From Candidatus Doudnabacteria bacterium (GTDB lineage Bacteria; Patescibacteriota; Doudnabacteria; UBA920; O2-02-FULL-48-8), in assembly GCA_016199215.1 (NCBI GenBank), contig JACQHB010000009.1, positions 4,905 through 68,904 of the forward strand: a DNA stretch of 64,000 nucleotides, read 5' to 3'. The notes beneath the pieces are model-generated. The model saw only the letters and a program-made list of their open reading frames with translations. It was not told the DNA's origin and did no database searches. This document shows, piece after piece, positions 3,532-39,312 of this stretch. Numbering within the stretch: the first letter of the stretch is position 1; each line of letters starts with the position of its first letter. The position numbers and the translations under genes are program-made.

Positions 3532-4251
3532 ATGTCCGGACACTCCAAGTGGGCGACAATCAAAAGGCAGAAAGCGGTGACTGACGCCAAGCGCGGACAA
3601 GCCTTTACTAAACTTGGCCGCAACATAACAATCGCAGTAAAGGAAGGCGGCGGACCGGACCCTTCCTTCAATTTCAAATTAAGAATGGCTGTTGACCGGG
3701 CCAAAGACGCGGGCATGCCTGCTGACAACATTGACCGGGCAATCAAGCGGGGATCGGGCGAGGGCAAGGAAGCGTTGGAAACAGTTGTTTACGAAGGCTA
3801 CGGCCCTTTTGGAACCGCATTCCTAATTGAAGCGGTTACTGATAATCCCAACCGAACAACCAGCAACATTAAGCATATTTTTGGCAGTTATGATGGAAAT
3901 TTGGGAACAAAAGGATCAGTTGCTTGGCAATTCAACACCAAGGGGCAAATCCTCATAGAGCGAGACAGGGAGGATTTGGCCGACTTAGAGCTTAAGGCAA
4001 TCGATGCCGGAGCCGAAGACGTTAGAGAATCCGAGGAAGGGTTGGAGGTGTATACCTTACCAATGGATTTGCAAAAAATAAAAGACTCCATGCTTAAGGC
4101 CGGAGCAAAAATTGCTAAAGCTGACGTGATCCAGGAGTCAAGTCAAGGAGTTAATTTAACCGAAGATCAAAAGGTGAAAGTGAACAGACTGTTTGAAGAA
4201 TTAGAAAATGACGATGATGTAATCGCGGTGCACACGAGCGCAAATTTATAA
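3532..4251 (+). CDS. yebC: YebC/PmpR family DNA-binding regulatory protein
   Basis: MSGHSKWATIKRQKAVTDAKRG... is the hallmark N-terminus of the YebC family. Classic synteny, immediately upstream of ruvC. Confidence 0.9.
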   Translation: MSGHSKWATIKRQKAVTDAKRGQAFTKLGRNITIAVKEGGGPDPSFNFKLRMAVDRAKDAGMPADNIDRAIKRGSGEGKEALETVVYEGYGPFGTAFLIEAVTDNPNRTTSNIKHIFGSYDGNLGTKGSVAWQFNTKGQILIERDREDLADLELKAIDAGAEDVRESEEGLEVYTLPMDLQKIKDSMLKAGAKIAKADVIQESSQGVNLTEDQKVKVNRLFEELENDDDVIAVHTSANL

Positions 4252-27295: not shown

Positions 27296-28558
27296 ATGGA
27301 GATAAGAAGTAGAACCTCTTGGAAGGACCAACTTAAAGAAAATTTGTTTCCTAAACTAGAGCAAGATTTAACCGCTGACGTTGTTATTATTGGCGGGGGA
27401 TTAGCTGGAATTATCTCCGGCTATTTTTTGGTTTTGGAAGGGAAAAGAGTGGTTTTGCTTGAGGAAAGAAAGGCTCTGGGATCGTTTGCAACCGGGCACA
27501 CGACAGCTTTTTTGACAGGGGTGATTGATACTAATCTTGTAACTTTAGCGGAAATGTTTGGAGAAGAAAGAGCGGCAAAAGTTTGGCAATCGGGGCTTGC
27601 ATCCATAGATGAATTTGAAAGGATTATAGAAAAGGAAAAAATTGATTGCGAGTTTATGCGCTGCCCTTATTTTGATTATGCAAATAACCCCAAACAGTTT
27701 TCAAGTCTTGAAAAGGAACACGAAATTGCGTCAAAGCTGGGTTTTCAAACCTCTCTTAGCAGGACTAATGATTTAAGTTTTCCTAATTTTGGTTATTTAA
27801 AAATGGAGGAGCAGGCAAAGTTTGATCCGCTCAAGTTTTTAAACCAGCTGGCAAACAAAGCAAAAAATTTGGGACTGAAGATTTTTGCCGATTCAGAAGT
27901 GATTGGAATTGACCGAGGCCGCCTAATTACCGCAAAGACTCAAAACGGAAGCGTTAAGGCAGAAAAATTAATTGTTGCCACATACCAGCCATTTGATAAC
28001 CGAGGCACCTGGTTTAAAAAAGGAATGTATCGCAGTTATGTGTTTGAAATCAACTTGGCTCCCGGTCAGATTGCGGAAGGCCTATACGTGGATGGCGATA
28101 ACCCTTACCACTACTTCCGGATTGATAGATTGGGCGAATATGACAGGATGATTATTGGGGGCGAGGACCATCGGAAAGAATTTAAAACTGACAGAATGAA
28201 ACAAAAATCTTTTCGGCTTCTTTCCGATTACGCCAAAAATATTTTAAGAGGCAAAACCCACGAATTTGTGCGTAAATGGGATGGTCCGATTTTGGAGCCA
28301 ATAGACGGGGTTGCTTTAATCGGCTCGGTTGAACCTAATGAATTTGTTGCTACTGGTTTTTCTGGCAACGGCATGACTTACTCTATGATCTCCGGACTTA
28401 TTTTCTGCGACCTTGTTTTGAATAGGGAAAATCCTTGGGTAGAATTATATAATCCCAAAAGAATCCCAGGATTCTCCCAACTTGCAAAAAAGGGCAGGGA
28501 TTATTTAGGAGAATTTTTTGGAGGCCCCTTGTTCAGAAGCCCAAAACCTGCGTATTAA
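27296..28558 (+). CDS. FAD-dependent oxidoreductase (DadA/glycine-oxidase-like)
   Basis: Dinucleotide-binding motif VVIIGGGLAGIISGYFL at the N-terminus; 420 aa. Confidence 0.6.
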   Translation: MEIRSRTSWKDQLKENLFPKLEQDLTADVVIIGGGLAGIISGYFLVLEGKRVVLLEERKALGSFATGHTTAFLTGVIDTNLVTLAEMFGEERAAKVWQSGLASIDEFERIIEKEKIDCEFMRCPYFDYANNPKQFSSLEKEHEIASKLGFQTSLSRTNDLSFPNFGYLKMEEQAKFDPLKFLNQLANKAKNLGLKIFADSEVIGIDRGRLITAKTQNGSVKAEKLIVATYQPFDNRGTWFKKGMYRSYVFEINLAPGQIAEGLYVDGDNPYHYFRIDRLGEYDRMIIGGEDHRKEFKTDRMKQKSFRLLSDYAKNILRGKTHEFVRKWDGPILEPIDGVALIGSVEPNEFVATGFSGNGMTYSMISGLIFCDLVLNRENPWVELYNPKRIPGFSQLAKKGRDYLGEFFGGPLFRSPKPAY

Positions 28559-28559
28559 A

Positions 28560-28588
28560 AAATCCCGCTACTAAGCGGGATTTATATT
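28560..28588. terminator. bidirectional hairpin terminator (aaatcccgct-acta-agcgggattt) between the oxidoreductase gene and rpsT
   Basis: Perfect 10-bp stem seen in the sequence between convergent genes. Confidence 0.65.
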
Positions 28589-28589
28589 A

Positions 28590-28850
28590 TTATTTTTTAG
28601 AAACCAGTTTAGTCAATCTGGCCTTTAATCTCGAGGCCTTATTTTTATGAATCACATTCTTTTTGGCCGCTTTATCAAGGGCAGAGAAAGCTTGGTTTAA
28701 GGCTTTTTTTGCATCCTCGATTTTGCCAGAGGTTGCCAGTTTTTTTACCTGCTTGGTGGTTTTTTTTATCTTTTCGAGGACCGCAAGGTTTACTACTCTG
28801 CGCTTTAAACTTTGTCGTGCAGCTTTGATTGCGGATTTAGTATTTGGCAT
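28590..28850 (-). CDS. rpsT: 30S ribosomal protein S20
   Basis: MPNTKSAIKAARQSLKRRVVN... is a typical S20, 86 aa. Confidence 0.9.
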   Translation of the reverse strand: MPNTKSAIKAARQSLKRRVVNLAVLEKIKKTTKQVKKLATSGKIEDAKKALNQAFSALDKAAKKNVIHKNKASRLKARLTKLVSKK

Positions 28851-28938
28851 ATGGGAGTAAAAAGTAAAAGGTTAAAAGTTAAAAGATATTGACCAGAGCG
28901 ACACTTTGCCTGATCAGCCTAAAGATAATACCACGACC

Positions 28939-28967
28939 TTGACAAATGGTCAAAAAGGGAGTATATT
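28939..28967 (+). promoter_or_regulatory. consensus sigma70-type promoter upstream of the DGR target gene
   Basis: TTGACA (28939-28944), a 17-bp spacer, then TATATT (28962-28967), read directly. A strong RBS (AGGAGGA) lies 8 nt before the 29048 ATG. Confidence 0.6.
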
Positions 28968-29047
28968 ATATGGTCAAAATGAGAAGGTAGATTATCTCAT
29001 TTACCGAAGTCTGGCGGTTTCCAGGCTAACACCAGGAGGATGCGCCG

Positions 29048-29662
29048 ATGGCCAAAGCCATTGCCCCGTCCGTGTCAGTGGAACAGTCCGAATCGAAGAT
29101 CGCTGGTTTGCTCGATCAGCTCAAGGCGGTCATTCGTCACTCAGGTCTCAACGACGACCAGCTTCAGGCGATTCGCGACAGCGGCCGACTGCCGGTTGAT
29201 TTCGAACCGGTGTTTGCCAAACTCGCAGCCGTGGTCTGCAATGCGATCCGGCTGACGATCTCGACCGTGAAGGCCTTCGAGAAGCCGAGCTGGATGAAGC
29301 GTCTCGTTCGCGGCAACGACCCAGTCACGCCTGGCATCTACGAGTACACCTTCGAAGGATTCCTTCGCGAAGGTGAAGAGTCGGTCAAGGGCGATGAGAT
29401 GGTCGCTCGAGCCAAGGCGTCAGGTGCTTACTCGGGATTGCAGCACGCGCTGTACTTCCTGGACAACCAGCACCTCATTCCGGAGGAGTTCAGGGACAAG
29501 AAATACTTGATCTTTGCCGACACAGAGGCGCTCAACTCCAACGACCGCAGCGATGTGGCCTGCCTCGCGTGGGGCGGCCTCCAGTGGATTCTGTACTGGC
29601 GCTTGCTTGTGGATGACTTTAACCGGAACGATCTGCTCGTTCGCGCCCGCAAGGTCCAGTAG
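29048..29662 (+). CDS. DGR target (variable) protein, 204 aa, with the variable repeat at its C-terminus; no signal peptide and no recognisable domain
   Basis: Its last ~126 bp are repeated with adenine-specific differences ~500 bp downstream (the TR). The gene is visibly GC-rich relative to all flanking genes. Confidence 0.8.
   Translation: MAKAIAPSVSVEQSESKIAGLLDQLKAVIRHSGLNDDQLQAIRDSGRLPVDFEPVFAKLAAVVCNAIRLTISTVKAFEKPSWMKRLVRGNDPVTPGIYEYTFEGFLREGEESVKGDEMVARAKASGAYSGLQHALYFLDNQHLIPEEFRDKKYLIFADTEALNSNDRSDVACLAWGGLQWILYWRLLVDDFNRNDLLVRARKVQ
29527..29652 (+). repeat. DGR variable repeat (VR) with an IMH-like invariant 3' segment
   Basis: Aligns with the TR at 30029-30154, and 15 of 16 mismatches sit at TR adenines. 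The 3' 35 nt (gactttaaccggaacgatctgctcgttcgcgcccg) are identical in both copies. The VR ends 10 bp before the stop codon. Confidence 0.85.
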
Positions 29663-30028
29663 TCCTCGGCACCTTGGGTCCTTTGTTCTTGGACCCTTGG
29701 GTTCTTGGGAGCCTCACGATTTCGATTCAATTCGATTCGTGGGCTCCTTTTCATTTCCGCCTTCGTCAAGACTTCGGCGGACAGGTTGCTAATATGATAA
29801 AATTACTTTAGATAAATTTGAAAATATCTGCGAGTATTGCTTTCAGATTGTTTATCTCGCACTGTCAGAATGCCAGAGTGTCTTAAGTTTACTTAAGATA
29901 GAGTGCTATCTGACAAGAAGATTCCATAGGAACTTGGTGTATGGTATTAGAGGATTTGCAGGATCCCGAATTAAATACAGCCTTAAGAGTATTCGAGAGG
30001 TGGTGTTAACGGATGATACTGTGCACAT

Positions 30029-30154
30029 GGCGCTCAACTCCAACGACAACAGCAATGTGGCCTACCTCAAGTGGGACGGCAACCAGTGGATTCTGAACTG
30101 GAACTGGCTTGAGAATGACTTTAACCGGAACGATCTGCTCGTTCGCGCCCGAAA
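30029..30154 (+). other. DGR template repeat (TR), non-coding and rich in AAC/AAT codons in the VR frame
   Basis: See the VR entry. The TR contains aac or aat at every position that differs in the VR. The ORF-track ORF 29934-30251 is just this template read as protein. Confidence 0.85.
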
Positions 30155-30180
30155 CTTCCGTGGATACAAAAACTCCTCCC

Positions 30181-30510
30181 TTAATTGGGAGGAGTTTGTT
30201 TGCCGATTTGTTTTTGCCAGCCACCAAGTTGCCGGCCGACTTCGCCTATAACAACTGTCAATTCGGATAAAGTTTTGTCATCAACCGTTTTTAATTCAAT
30301 AGCTGTTTGAAGAAAGTATTTCAGCAAATCTAATTTAATACTCGCTTTTTTGAGAATTATTGATTTTTGTTCCTTTTCAGAATAGCCTGCTATCAAAATC
30401 AATTCTGTAAGCTCGATAAATAAATTTGTTATTTTTTCCCCTAAAGAATAACGAATAAGTCTTGGAATGCGTGGCAGATGGTTAATCCAGATTTTGAATG
30501 CTATCGACAA
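30181..30510 (-). CDS. avd: DGR accessory variability determinant (Avd-like four-helix-bundle protein)
   Basis: About 109 aa with the near-C-terminal ...ELTVVIGEVGRQLGGWQKQ... segment and the ELILIAGYS segment resembling the Avd / four-helix-bundle family. TTG start. It sits between the TR and the RT but on the opposite strand. Confidence 0.7.
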   Translation of the reverse strand: MSIAFKIWINHLPRIPRLIRYSLGEKITNLFIELTELILIAGYSEKEQKSIILKKASIKLDLLKYFLQTAIELKTVDDKTLSELTVVIGEVGRQLGGWQKQIGKQTPPN

Positions 30511-30552
30511 TTTCTGAATTATGGGCAGATTTAAAGTGTCGAAATTTCCGTT

Positions 30553-30562
30553 GGGGGGGGGG
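30553..30562. repeat. G10 homopolymeric tract at the 5' end of the RT gene
   Basis: ttgggggggggcg read directly. It lies in the RT 5' extension or promoter, depending on which start codon is real. Confidence 0.8.
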
Positions 30563-30578
30563 CGTATTAAATGTCATT

Positions 30579-31590
30579 ATGAAAATTAAGTTTAGTATTA
30601 ATTATCAAGAGCTAATATCAGTCGAGAACCTTTTTGCTGCATGGAAGGAGTTTATAAACGGTAAGCGAAGTAAGCCGGACGTCCAAAGATTTGCTCACGC
30701 TTTAATAGATAATATTCTACAGCTTCACGAGGATCTTGCCAACAAGACCTATAAGCATGGCGGTTATCATTGTTTTAATATCTCTGATCCTAAGCCTCGT
30801 AATATTAGCAAGGCGATTGTTCGTGATCGTTTATTACATCACGCGATTTATAGAAAATTCTATCCGTTTTTCGATAAGACCTTTATTGCTGATTCGTATT
30901 CCTGTCGAATTAATAAAGGAACTCATAAAGCTATTGATCGATTGTTAGGGATGTATTATAAGGTCAGTAAAAATAATCATAAGACTTGCTGGATATTAAA
31001 ATGCGATATTAGAAAATTTTTCGGCAGTATCGACCATAATATTTTGCTTAAGATTTTACAGTATTATATTCCCGATCAAGACATCCTCTGGTTGATGAAA
31101 AATATTATTGTCAGCTTTTCAACAAGTGAGAATAAGGGACTGCCGCTAGGCAATCTTACCTCGCAGCTGTTTGTGAACGTATACATGAATGAATTTGACC
31201 AGCGTAAAACATAAGCTTAAGGTCAAGAATTATATAAGGTACGCTGATGATTTTGTGATCCTATCGAAGGAAAGAAATGAATTGGTTAGTTTAATTGATA
31301 AGATTACCAAGTTTCTTAAGGACGAACTTGATTTAACCTTGCATCCGTATAAAATCAATATAAGCAATTTTGCGTTAGGAGTTGATTTTCTTGGTTGGGT
31401 TAATTTTTCAAAGCATAGAGTATTAAGAACTACAACCAAAAAGCACATGTTGAGGCGAATAGGCGAGCACCCAACAGCTGAGATGTTGCAGTCTTATTTA
31501 GGCTTATTGCAGCTTGGCAATACTAATAAGATTAAACAAGATCTCGTGAGTAAATATTGGTATTTGAACACACGAAAACTGGAATTGTAG
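30579..31590 (+). CDS. DGR-type reverse transcriptase, interrupted by a frameshift near 31200-31215 (pseudogene or sequencing error)
   Basis: RT motifs in order: ...CFNISDPKPRNISKAIVRDRLLHHAIY..., ...ILKCDIRKFFGSIDH..., DGR-characteristic GLPLGNLTSQLFVNVYMNEFD, then in the +1 frame VKHKLKVKNYIRYADDFVILS (YADD box) and thumb. The two ORF-track ORFs 30498-31214 and 31189-31590 are the two halves. Confidence 0.85.
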
Positions 31591-31611
31591 AAAAACTGAG
31601 ATTTGACAAAC

Positions 31612-31640
31612 GGGAACAATAGTGGTAAAAAATAAATGAG
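31612..31640 (+). promoter_or_regulatory. sigma70-like promoter upstream of the large surface-protein gene
   Basis: TTGACA, a 17-bp spacer, then TAAAAA(AT), read directly. Followed by a 7-bp hairpin (ttaacct/aggttaa) in the leader. Confidence 0.45.
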
Positions 31641-31713
31641 AGTTAACCTTGAAAGATTAGGTTAAATCAGAACAACAGAGAGACCAAAAAGCCCAAAACG
31701 CAGGCGGTGGAGC

Positions 31714-34700
31714 TTGCGCTTTTTTAATCCAAAAATTTTGAGCAAGAGGAAGAAAATTTTTTTGGCATCAACCCTTGTTTTACTGGGGCTTTTGGTTGCG
31801 GTCTTATTCTTGATCGATCGTCAAACAGATAATTCTTATAAGGGGGAGGTTGCTGGTATAAATATTGAAAGCCCTAAAATTGAGCAAATCGAGCAATTTG
31901 AAACAACCCACCAAGATGCTGCTACTGACGATCTGACCTCAAGCAGTATCGACTCTGCTCCTCAACCAGTAATTTTTTCCCCGCCATCCCCAGTTTTTTC
32001 GTCTCCTTCATTTCAACTCATCCCGGAGCAGGCCTCTACGGACGAATCTCCTCCACAAGCTGTTTCTGCTCCAGTTTCCTCTTCACCTCCAAATCCATTG
32101 CCTGTGTGGGGTGGGGTTAGTAGCGGAAGTAATCCGGAAGTACCAGCGGCTCCGCTTGTTTTGGACTCAACTCCTCCCAATCCTCCAACTGTTTCAACCC
32201 CAATTGCCAATTCAACTGTTACAGACGGTTCTCAAACTATTTCCGGGACCAAGACTTCCGATTCGGTTTTGGTTTGGGTTAATTCAGAATCAACCGGGGT
32301 CACTTATCCAAGCTCAACTACCTGGGAAAAAACAGTCGATTTGGCTTTTGGTATAAATACTTTTTCCATAACTTCCACTGACGGCGCTGGCAATCAAAGT
32401 GAAGCTGTCTCATATTCCATAAGTTTGGATAATCAAGGTCCGGACGTGCCAGTCGTAATTTCACCCGCCAATAATTTCACTTTTTATTCTGAAAATGATT
32501 ATGACCAAGACACACCGGGCATGCAGGTCTTATTGTTGGGGACCAAGACAGCTGACGCAAGTTTGGTCTTGATAAACTCTGCAGGTGTAATTTATCCCAG
32601 CAGTACGAGTTGGCAGAAAACAATCACCCTTAGCACGGGGATTAATAGTTTTAGCTTGCTGGCAAAAGATGAGTTTGGCAATGAAAGCCCTTCCGTATCC
32701 CATACAGTAAGCTATGACGACTCGCCTCTGCCTGATGCTCCCACAGTTACTTCTCACTCAAACAATGCTACGGTTTATCCAGAAAACGATTTAGAGGCTG
32801 ATGCCGGCATGCAAATTTTATTTTCCGGGACCAAGCCTCCTTCTGCCGCGACTGTTCAAATAAACGGAAGTTCCTCTGGGGTTTTGTATCCAACTGATAC
32901 TACCTGGCAAAAAACCATTACTCTTTCATCTGGCGCAAACAGTTTTACGCTAAAGTCCGTAACCAGCGCAAATCGAGAAAGTTCTTCCACGTCCCACACG
33001 GTTAACTATAATAGCACGCCGCTTCCAGAGATTGACTTAATTTTTAGCAGCCACCGGCCGACTTCATTGACCATTCCAGTATCCTGGTCGTCAACCACAC
33101 CGGGGGTCGCTAGTTTTGATGTAGAGTATAAGACAGGCAATGGAAGTTTTGTCTCCTGGAAATCAGCCACAACCGCAATCTCTGATAATTTTTATGCAAC
33201 CCAAGATCGAACCACTTATACTTTCCGGGCGAGGTCCAGATCTACTCGAATCGGGGATTGGGAGGAACAATCAACAGAAATTTTCCTTCAAGCAGTGATT
33301 ATTAATGAAATTGCTTGGCCGGGGACTGATGCTTCCAGCAATGACGAATGGATTGAGCTTTACAACAATACGAACTCGGCAATTAGCCTGGCTGGCTGGA
33401 AATTAACGACATTGTCAGGCTCCATTAACACGACCTTATCAGGGACAATAAGCGCCAAGGGATATTATCTTTTGGAACGAACTGACGATACAACAATTGA
33501 CAGTTTGGCAGCAGATAAAATTTATACAGGTTACTTGGATAATGGAGGTGATCGGATTAATTTGATCAATGACGAAAACAGGACAATCGATGTTGTAGAC
33601 ATGTCCTCAACCGGATGGACCGCTGGTACTGTTGCTGGTAAGAAAACAGCGGAACGAATAAATCCCAATCTATCTTCTTTTGCATCCAACAATTTCGCGA
33701 CCTCTACTGCCACAAGTTCTGAAACAGATTCAGAAGACAATCCTATCAAAGGAACGCCGAAGGCAGTTAACAGCGTGTTGAATGCCAGTTTGGCTGCCGC
33801 AACCCCGATTGTCTATGATACTGCCATAAATCGGGACACGGTTTTTGATGAGCTTGGGGAAATTTACAAAACTCAAGGAGCAGGGTTAACTCTTTCTGCC
33901 GATACGACGTTAGTGGTACGACCCGGAGTGGCAATTCTTGCCAATTCTCAAATCCAAATCAATGGCAAACTTAGCGTGGTCGGAACAGGCTCCTCCAACG
34001 CGGTCTTCACCTCTTACAGAGATTCAAATTATGGCGGAGCTGGTGGAGCAAATCCAGGCGATTGGACCGGAATCAAATTCAATGCGGGCGCTTCAAGTCT
34101 TTCAAGCATTGATTATGCCAAAATAATTTACGCTGGAAGCGCGGGCGGCATGAGTGGGGGAATAATCGTGAATGGTTCCAATCCGACAATAACGAATTCC
34201 ATAATAGAAAGAAGTATTTACGGCGCCACTGTCCTTTCCGGTAACCCAACCATTTCCAACAACACAATGCAGAACAATGATGCGACTGGCCTGCGAATCG
34301 CTGGCGGTAGTGCGGTCATCAACAACAATAGCAGTTTGGCAAACCAATATGGGGCGATTATCGAAGGCGGCGGCCCGACCCTGACCAGCAATGTTTTTGA
34401 CAACAATACTTCTGAAGCGATTCAATGGTACTTCCTAAGTTCAACCCTCGCTGGATCCGGCAATACAGCTTCGGGCAACCCGAAGAATGCCATTGAACTT
34501 GCCGGCGGATCAAACACCGGAGGAAACCATACTTTTGTCAATCTTGGTTTGGGTTATTCGGTTAACAGCTTAACAGTGCGGGCATCCGATACTTTAACTA
34601 TTAATCCAGGTACGATAATCAAATTCTCAAGTGGCATGACCGTAAATGGTAAATTGATTGCAGTTGGTACTGCTGGCAATCGCATTGTGTTTACTTCTTC

Positions 34701-35109
34701 CACTGACCCGGGTGTACCAGTCCCAGGGCAATGGGGAAATGTGAATTTAACCGCTTCTTCATCAGTAGAAACCCAAATTGCTTACGCGGATTTCAAAAAC
34801 GGCACCGGTCTTTCCGGCACCACAGGGGCTTTGTATGTTGCAGTCAACGGCCTAAGTTTTGACTACCTTAATTTTGACGGCAACGGCTTGGGTTTGTTTG
34901 TGAACAGTTCAAATATAAGCATCAGTCAAAGCATGTTTAACAATAATCCCAGCGGCGGTTTGATCAACAATACCAGCAATCTTGTTAATGCCGAAAATAA
35001 TTACTGGGGCAATGCCAGCGGGCCAAGACACAGTTCCAACCCCGGTGGAACCGGAGACAATGTCAGCGATAATATTGATTTTGACCCGTTTCTAACGGAA
35101 GCTCCCTAA
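31714..35109 (+). CDS. large cell-surface protein with an N-terminal TM anchor, Pro/Ser-rich linker, three Ig-like repeats, a lamin-tail domain (LTD) and parallel beta-helix repeats
   Basis: TTG start. Three ~95-aa tandem repeats (...[34 protein letters not shown]...). LTD signature [27 protein letters not shown]...LAGWKL. Then repeated NNxxxG beta-helix units (pectate-lyase-like). Confidence 0.7.
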
Positions 35110-38739: not shown

Positions 38740-39312
38740 ATGCAATATAAAATCGCTGTTTCCGGTTCCGCGGAAAACAACTGCGCCCAGGGCGCGTTTC
38801 GAAAATCATATGAAGTTGGGCGGCAGATTGCTTTGCAAGGCGGAATTCTTTTAACTGGAGCAACTATAGGCATTCCCGCCTGGGCCACAAGGGGAGCTAA
38901 AGCCGCGGGCGGAATTTCAATCGGACTTTCTCCGGCCGTGTCCAAACAATCCCATATTAAGACTTATCATCTGCCAGTTAAGTATATGGACTTGATTATT
39001 TACACGGGCTTTGATTATTCCGGCAGGAATATGCTCATGACACGGGCGGCTGACGCCGTGATTGTGGTTTGCGGCAGGATCGGAACGCTTAACGAATTTA
39101 CTACCGCCTTTGAGGAAAAGCGGGTGGTCGGCGTCCTGACGGGAACCGGGGGAGTGGAAGAAGAGATTGATGATATTTTAAAAATAGCCCGCCGTGGAAA
39201 AAAAAATATTGTCTTTGATGATGATCCTGCAAGGTTGGTGGCTAAGCTTATAAAATTAGTCCGGATAAACGAACGGCAAAAATCCGCTCCCAAGCATAGA
39301 GAGGTCGCGTAA
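38740..39312 (+). CDS. TIGR00725/LOG-like Rossmann-fold nucleotide-binding protein
   Basis: IAVSGSA... N-terminus, glycine-rich TGAT(I)GIP segment and a ...VVCGRIGTLNEF... segment typical of the LOG/SLOG family. Confidence 0.6.
   Translation: MQYKIAVSGSAENNCAQGAFRKSYEVGRQIALQGGILLTGATIGIPAWATRGAKAAGGISIGLSPAVSKQSHIKTYHLPVKYMDLIIYTGFDYSGRNMLMTRAADAVIVVCGRIGTLNEFTTAFEEKRVVGVLTGTGGVEEEIDDILKIARRGKKNIVFDDDPARLVAKLIKLVRINERQKSAPKHREVA

Follow-up and report, generated by a model that had tools for sequence, protein, structure and literature searches.

What does a run of ten identical bases do where two oppositely oriented genes of a mutagenesis cassette meet? The question is raised by a stretch of 64,000 nt from Candidatus Doudnabacteria (GenBank assembly GCA_016199215.1, contig JACQHB010000009.1, positions 4,905 to 68,904; hereafter the window), in which a diversity-generating retroelement (DGR) is laid out as variable repeat (VR), template repeat (TR), accessory gene avd and reverse transcriptase (RT) gene, in the order VR-TR-(avd)-RT. 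Ten consecutive G occupy positions 30553–30562 of the plus strand, close to the start codons of avd and the RT gene. An earlier interpretation made from the letters of this DNA (the sequence-only reading) had taken the run for a possible slipped-strand switch of the RT, and had missed that on the minus strand the same bases lie inside the 5' coding region of avd. Judging from sequence comparisons, we consider it on balance probable that the run is a hypermutable contingency tract that gates the Avd protein and so the activity of the DGR.

A homopolymer in the 5' coding region of avd

Direct counting confirmed the ten-G run, which is the sole G or C run longer than 6 nt in the window, the next longest being four G6 and four C6. 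The window has a G+C content of 45% and holds 76 A/T runs of at least 7 nt, among them an A9 at 39198–39206; under a first-order Markov model, ~0.11 G runs and ~0.06 C runs of at least 10 nt are expected in 64 kb. Two further details of the sequence-only reading were borne out on translation: the frame of an ATG at 30498 is open through the tract (..FRWGGGVLNV..), and a second plus-strand ATG, at 30579, stands just 3' of it, 16 nt past the last G. On the minus strand, three-frame translation places the tract as C10 in codons 6–9 of avd (MTFNT-PPP-NGNF...), and the avd ATG at 30577 and the RT ATG at 30579 stand back to back, pointing away from each other.

The full-length avd reading spans 30181–30577 on the minus strand and consists of the ATG (30577–30575) and MTFNT, the C tract (30553–30562), NGNFDTLNLPIIQKLSIAFK... 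and a stop codon at 30183–30181. With C9, the ATG at 30577 would read MTFNTPPPNGNFDTLNLPIIQKL.., which matches the N-termini of full-length homologues, and after nine C the reading would continue in the annotated Avd frame; the C10 of the window is one base out. The full-length homologues, 128–131 amino acids (aa) in size, start with MTFNTPPPNGNF.., MTYNAPPQPGF.., MQSSNPPPNATF.. or M..PPP.. and cover 96–99% of the frame-repaired Avd. The open reading frame (ORF) that can be called and is annotated in the window (30181–30510, minus strand, 109 aa) begins at a TTG and is without the conserved N-terminal 22 residues, dropping an N-terminal extension together with the first six positions of the Avd domain. 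Because the NCBIfam Avd model (DivGenRetAVD) aligns to residues 17–122 of the repaired protein, the tract falls within this extension of ~16 residues, where, read as C9, it is predicted to encode PPP.

The Pfam bAvd model (PF22296), which matches the ORF with 51 bits against a cut-off of 40, identifies the gene as avd. DivGenRetAVD scores 65.6 bits, under its cut-off of 80, and searching the PDB with the repaired protein gave no more than a marginal hit, Bordetella Avd (4DWL, E = 0.24). Nearest among database proteins, at 99% identity, is P0001, annotated as a 'four helix bundle protein' of 109 aa and encoded in a metagenome-assembled genome (MAG) of Candidatus Doudnabacteria. The gene adjoins the TR on the reverse strand, between the TR and the RT, an arrangement that corresponds to architecture B3, TR-(avd)-RT, of Wu et al. 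(PMC5758913).

Avd is the accessory protein that DGR RTs require, and in the Bordetella system it is reported to be essential for retrohoming (PMC5758913). Under the proposed mechanism, replication slippage would add C residues to the avd tract or remove them, frequently within populations, shifting the conserved avd ATG into or out of the reading frame of the Avd four-helix bundle. Production of full-length Avd, and with it the mutagenesis of adenines in the target gene, would turn ON and OFF stochastically and reversibly in sub-populations, so that the frame state of avd would control DGR activity. The window tract would represent the +1 (OFF) state, a single deletion away from ON (C9).

The tract and the frame of avd across related loci

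Two collection scans with an Avd alignment yielded 160 related loci, 148 of them unique (denoted below by L and a number), from many groups of the Patescibacteria/Candidate Phyla Radiation (CPR), including Doudna-, Uhr-, Niyogi-, Nealson-, Kerfeld-, Peregrini-, Nomura- and Giovannonibacteria. The homopolymer is conserved throughout this family: a pure C run of at least 7 nt is found at the avd 5' end in 121 of the 148 unique loci (C7 in 3, C8 in 10, C9 in 45, C10 in 47, C11 in 11 and C12 in 5). Elsewhere in the 806 kb of related loci there are 8 G/C runs of at least 7 nt, versus 121 at the avd site. The RT is divergent from avd in every related locus in which an RT was detected. Comparison of homologous cassettes, which the sequence-only reading had proposed, therefore gave lengths from 7 to 12 and not the uniform tract that would have spoken against a switch.

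It could be argued that the run has no function at all and is an artefact of assembly or sequencing, a neutral by-product of mutation or no more than a polyproline motif of Avd. Homopolymer lengths are indeed error-prone in sequencing, and the DGR of the window appears to be decaying anyway (see below). Nevertheless, ~120 independent assemblies, drawn from many studies, have the tract at the same position in the gene, the Avd proteins of the related loci are 41–75% identical to that of the window, which argues against a recent common origin, and a neutral run would decay by point mutation. Selection for proline does not explain the pure-C codon usage either: CCC makes up 21% of the proline codons in the window, where two other PPP motifs use mixed codons, and relatives that lack the tract also lack the PPP. 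The pure-C composition therefore suggests selection on the nucleotide run and not on proline. The flanks of the tract are weakly conserved and carry little information; what the family conserves is the homopolymer as such, and neither a proline motif nor any wider sequence element. Considering recurrence, codon usage and the frame controls described below, we regard the absence of any function as very improbable and largely refuted.

In three loci, the poly-C is replaced at the same site by (CA)10 or (CA)9 (L058, 1775–1794; L136, 1122–1141; L062, 3971–3988). L058 and L136 do not differ in the region read, and the DGR cassettes L058 and L062 both come from one MAG (CAYIBD01). In all three, the avd ATG is out of frame. 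That another kind of repeat can occupy this site speaks for selection on slippage-proneness and not on a particular sequence.

The frame of avd was compared across loci from start codons inferred for each, which lie 3–15 nt upstream of the tract or belong to a long form (M[STA]QLNFH..) antisense over RT codons 1–7. In 30 of 113 unique contexts, the conserved ATG shares the frame of the Avd core; in 59 it is shifted by one base, which is the state of the window, and in 24 by two. If every upstream in-frame ATG is counted, the in-frame loci still number only 38 of 114, and clustering into ~103–112 independent groups leaves the in-frame fraction at 28–31%. Every one of the 18 unique homologues without a tract, by comparison, has its ATG in frame (Fisher p = 3e-8 versus tract-bearing loci). 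Alleles with an interrupted tract are mostly in frame as well (L135, ACCCCACGA; L067, CACCCCGCG; L074/L075 and L101 with C6), the exception being L158 (C5-A-C6), which is out of frame. Since tract-less and most interrupted alleles are in frame, the upstream ATG can be taken as the real avd start, and the out-of-frame state appears, from these alignments, to be tolerated in repeat-bearing alleles only. Length changes shift avd among frames 0, +1 and +2, as expected of a contingency locus at the sequence level; an over-represented repeat inside an ORF and repeat-number polymorphism between close relatives, two further marks of such loci, are likewise found.

This polymorphism is most evident between near-identical assemblies. 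Two loci from the Hainich H43 site (L121 and L049) align over 5476 bp with 0 mismatches and differ in the tract alone, C9 against C10, and two from Rifle MAGs (L005, an intact cassette, and L172) align over 2367 bp with 0 mismatches and again differ only there, C9 (in frame) against C8. Between L005 and L171, likewise from Rifle (3355 bp), the tract differs along with 7 substitutions, all in the VR; between L072 and L133 (2403 bp), the tract (C9/C10) differs along with 17 substitutions, 16 of them in the VR; and between L083 and L007, again from Hainich H43 (3869 bp), along with 5 substitutions. The tract is the sole indel in the near-identical pairs compared, and its length varies in 4 of 14 clusters at 97% identity or more. 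On the basis of these pairs, the tract changes on the same short timescale as the DGR-driven diversification of the VR. The sequence-only reading's idea of a slipped-strand tract that differs in length between lineages is thus supported, among homologues (C7–C12) and among near-identical assemblies alike; the gene that would be toggled is, however, avd and not the RT.

A number of observations weigh against a DNA switch in avd. The length variation is seen in consensus sequences, between assemblies, from which mixing within populations can only be extrapolated, and the consensus lengths may include homopolymer miscalls, a few loci possibly coming from long-read assemblies. Some out-of-frame states are stable: C8 recurs in four Joint Genome Institute samples (L163–L166) and C10 in four contigs of one groundwater data set (L167–L170). 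L072 and L133 are both out of frame and yet their VRs differ, so that the DGR seems to diversify in lineages in which the consensus avd is OFF. In about half of the OFF loci, a TTG or GTG close to the conserved NLP motif could yield a nearly complete Avd without reading the tract. The in-frame fraction of ~30% is not above chance and suits a frame-independent mechanism equally well. Finally, the need for Avd reported from the Bordetella system is carried over to the DGRs of CPR bacteria by analogy.

The main rival of the DNA switch is recoding: RNA polymerase would slip on the C run, or tRNA-Pro would shift by one base at CCC-C in a polyproline stall, and the tract would act as an expression attenuator, some full-length Avd being made whatever the genomic tract length. 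All three frames occur without enrichment of the in-frame state (30/59/24), the commonest state is +1, which is the one that a +1 ribosomal shift would correct, and the VRs have diverged between two out-of-frame populations (L072/L133). CCC-N codons read by tRNA-Pro are documented as +1 frameshift sites (PMC7577736, PMC8324841). On the other hand, the frame offset is not fixed across homologues, unlike in known programmed frameshifts, and local folding gave no sign of a stimulatory RNA structure (z = -0.4). The (CA)9-10 repeats of L058, L136 and L062 are not a known slippery site for ribosomes or RNA polymerase, but a classic substrate for slippage of DNA. During transcription, hybrids rich in G:C are also less prone to slip than A/T runs. 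Taken together, we consider recoding unlikely.

The RT strand and the cassette of the window

If the tract acted within the RT, as the sequence-only reading proposed in its first alternative by placing it in the first ~20 codons after an ATG at 30498, its length changes would frameshift the RT. The open frame through the tract in the window would allow this, but the related loci do not: in 87 of 108, an in-frame RT ATG with a conserved N-terminus (MKIQ/MKIK..; MK(I/K/V)(Q/K)) follows the tract on its 3' side at a distance of 8–36 nt, an in-frame ATG upstream of the tract with an open frame is found in only 20 of 108, about the level of chance, and the interval 30498–30578 is the antisense of conserved avd coding sequence. 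As the RT starts 3' of the tract, tract length cannot frameshift it, and the gene whose frame shifts is the one on the opposite strand, avd. We see hardly any chance that the tract is part of the RT.

A G run in the 5' leader or promoter of the RT might instead tune RT transcription or translation, as in the second alternative of the sequence-only reading; this could control both divergent genes at once and could coexist with a switch in avd. The position of the run, 8–36 nt upstream of the RT ATG in the same 87 loci and just 5' of the expected RT Shine-Dalgarno sequence, would be suitable for such a role, as would the back-to-back start codons of the window. Divergent genes sharing one repeat are also known from hifA/hifB of Haemophilus influenzae. 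Against this, a promoter and terminator scan detected no sigma-70-like hexamer pair flanking the tract, although CPR promoter rules may differ from the sigma-70 model. The distance from the tract to the RT ATG varies and often leaves too little room for a -10 element and a leader, and, should RT and TR share a transcript, a change of 1 nt ahead of the Shine-Dalgarno sequence would be expected to matter little. The 18 tract-less cassettes look intact, and a role on the RT strand leaves unexplained why their avd genes are always in frame. That the tract acts mainly on this strand thus appears improbable.

Other signals near the tract were also sought. An Rfam scan of 28500–32500 at a permissive threshold returned nothing at or near the tract, and RNA folding of 30500–30620 on both strands was no better than shuffled sequences (z = -0.3 and -0.4), on which grounds a local structured-RNA role was dropped. 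A separate observation at this junction concerns L014, where the start codons of avd and the RT are held apart by an insertion of ~110 nt (3870–3975). The insertion, bounded by terminal inverted repeats (GTCATTCCCG...CGGGAATGAC), has the look of a miniature mobile element and carries a G11 run on the avd strand, the sole other long G/C homopolymer in the 806 kb.

A 2-nt deletion at 31203, ahead of the catalytic YADD motif, splits the RT of the window. The N-terminal fragment (30579–31214, plus strand; MKIKFSINYQ...) contains the LGNLTSQ motif and ends prematurely after NEFDQ, at a frameshift site (31200–31206) that reads CAG-C-GTA where homologues have Q-F/Y-V. The C-terminal fragment lies in another frame (31189–31590, plus strand) and holds YADD. 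Pfam RVT_1 matches both fragments, which, together with LGNLTSQ, identifies a DGR-type RT, albeit one that is no longer intact; 124 homologous loci are contiguous through FDQ[F/Y]VKH, where the window RT breaks. Exact-sequence look-ups with rpsT and the C-terminal RT ORF gave two exactly matching Logan contigs, both from SRR12113385, one of which, independently assembled, has the same 2-nt deletion; look-ups with the window Avd ORF, P0001 and the 238-aa RT ORF matched no contig. These Logan contigs end at 29642, in the VR, and start at 30885, in the RT, with the tract outside both, the segment from TR through avd to the tract not being joined to its neighbours in that assembly. With the deletion present in an independent contig, the window RT is, by its sequence, a pseudogene, and because of this irreversible deletion the window copy of the DGR is probably no longer active.

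The remaining parts of the cassette are the target gene and the repeat pair. The target gene (29048–29662, plus strand) encodes 204 aa without a Pfam match and carries the VR (29527–29657) at its 3' end. The TR (30029–30159, plus strand), found by repeat comparison with the VR, differs from it over 131 nt at 15 TR adenines and at 1 non-adenine, the pattern expected of a DGR repeat pair. The one non-adenine difference among the 16 (TR 30106 G, VR 29604 T) is consistent with drift since the last retrohoming or with imperfect RT fidelity. Overlapping the TR is an ORF (29934–30251) whose peptide resembles the C-terminus of the target protein (..WDGNQWILNWNWLENDFNRNDLLVRAR..); it is probably a TR-derived pseudo-ORF and not a gene.

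Two inverted repeats were noticed in the cassette. Directly 3' of the TR, across the avd stop codon, a perfect 10-bp hairpin, AACTCCTCCC-TTAATT-GGGAGGAGTT (30171–30196), resembles a sequence at 29473–29490 and might serve as a terminator of avd or as an RNA element of the DGR. The G-rich arm of the hairpin is antisense to KQTPP at the Avd C-terminus, a motif kept in most homologues. Pairing at a distance between the G run and the C-rich hairpin arm was considered and set aside, since that arm already pairs locally and KQTPP is missing from some tract-bearing homologues. The second, a short GC-rich inverted repeat, GGGTCC-TTTGTTCTT-GGACCC (29676–29696), lies ~20 nt past the VR and recalls the hairpin described downstream of the VR and its initiation of mutagenic homing (IMH) site in the Bordetella DGR. 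Directly downstream of the RT, the region 31714–35109 encodes a protein of 1131 aa that combines Glucodextranase-B-like, lamin-tail and right-handed beta-helix domains and is likely located at the surface; the repeat search did not support it as a DGR target within the region examined.

Implications and relation to known systems

The regulation of DGRs is largely unknown, and in natural populations they often appear to be idle. A reversible frameshift switch in an essential accessory gene would, if confirmed, explain this patchy activity and would confine the cost of mutagenizing a functional gene to a minority of cells. One mutation-prone site would govern a mutagenesis machine, and two classic evolvability mechanisms, contingency loci and retroelement hypermutation, would be joined in a single cassette. 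In its broadest form, the proposal is that the conserved avd repeat, poly-C or in some lineages (CA)n, acts as a stochastic master switch of targeted hypermutation across a large clade of DGRs in CPR bacteria, with most cells and population consensuses OFF and rare slippage giving rise to an ON sub-population, and that it may also tune the RT through the back-to-back junction. We hold the chances of this wider proposal to be about even.

There is also a practical consequence for annotation. Gene callers truncate or mis-start avd in the tract-bearing clade, the window Avd with its 109 aa from a TTG being one example, and surveys that score DGRs as intact or inactive by consensus ORFs will misclassify most of this clade. 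In L163–L170, gene callers start avd downstream of the tract, which results in 109-aa and 113-aa calls.

Phase variation by simple sequence repeats and DGRs are each well known. The literature on DGRs and Avd in connection with homopolymers, frameshifts, phase variation or contingency loci, with Paul et al. 2017 and one 2026 bioRxiv preprint outside the coverage, gave no account of a repeat within avd or of a DGR under phase-variable control; the sequence-only reading had likewise known of no such switch in a DGR RT. For the DGR of Bordetella phage BPP-1 (mtd-avd-TR-brt), and in the survey of Wu et al., no homopolymer or repeat in avd is described. The Bordetella DGR has been reconstituted in Escherichia coli (PMC12875486). 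The window shares with BPP-1 a target with a C-terminal VR, a TR with adenine-specific differences, the Avd four-helix bundle and an RT with an LGxxxSQ motif. Unlike BPP-1, its Avd subfamily has the extra N-terminal extension of ~16 aa that bears the tract, and its RT is frameshifted.

Among repeat-controlled promoters, the TA repeats of H. influenzae hifA/hifB and the polyC of Bordetella fim are non-coding repeats between the -35 and -10 elements. They resemble the avd/RT arrangement in that one simple repeat lies in the short junction of divergent genes, whereas the avd tract is inside an ORF and no flanking promoter hexamers were detected. Frameshift-prone CCC-N proline codons, which involve tRNA-Pro, m1G37 and EF-P, offer another parallel, as a C run such as that of avd re-pairs perfectly in +1 or -1 and PPP is a stalling motif. 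Such sites, however, are known as error-prone positions and not as conserved regulatory devices, while in avd the offset is not fixed and (CA)n can substitute for the run.

The polyG/polyC loci of Campylobacter jejuni, which have counterparts in Neisseria and Haemophilus, are similar to avd in several respects: a G/C homopolymer lies in the 5' coding region with a modal length of 9–10, single-base changes between close relatives shift the frame, and some alleles are interrupted and phase-locked. The spread of 7–12 in avd also resembles that of the Campylobacter tracts. In C. jejuni, the modal length of 9–10 is set by mutational dynamics and not by selection for a particular state (PMC3401435). 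The avd tract differs in being conserved across whole phylum-level lineages. Furthermore, the Campylobacter-type loci gate surface structures, restriction-modification systems and other functions in host-associated pathogens, whereas the avd tract lies in a component of a targeted-hypermutation system in environmental CPR bacteria.
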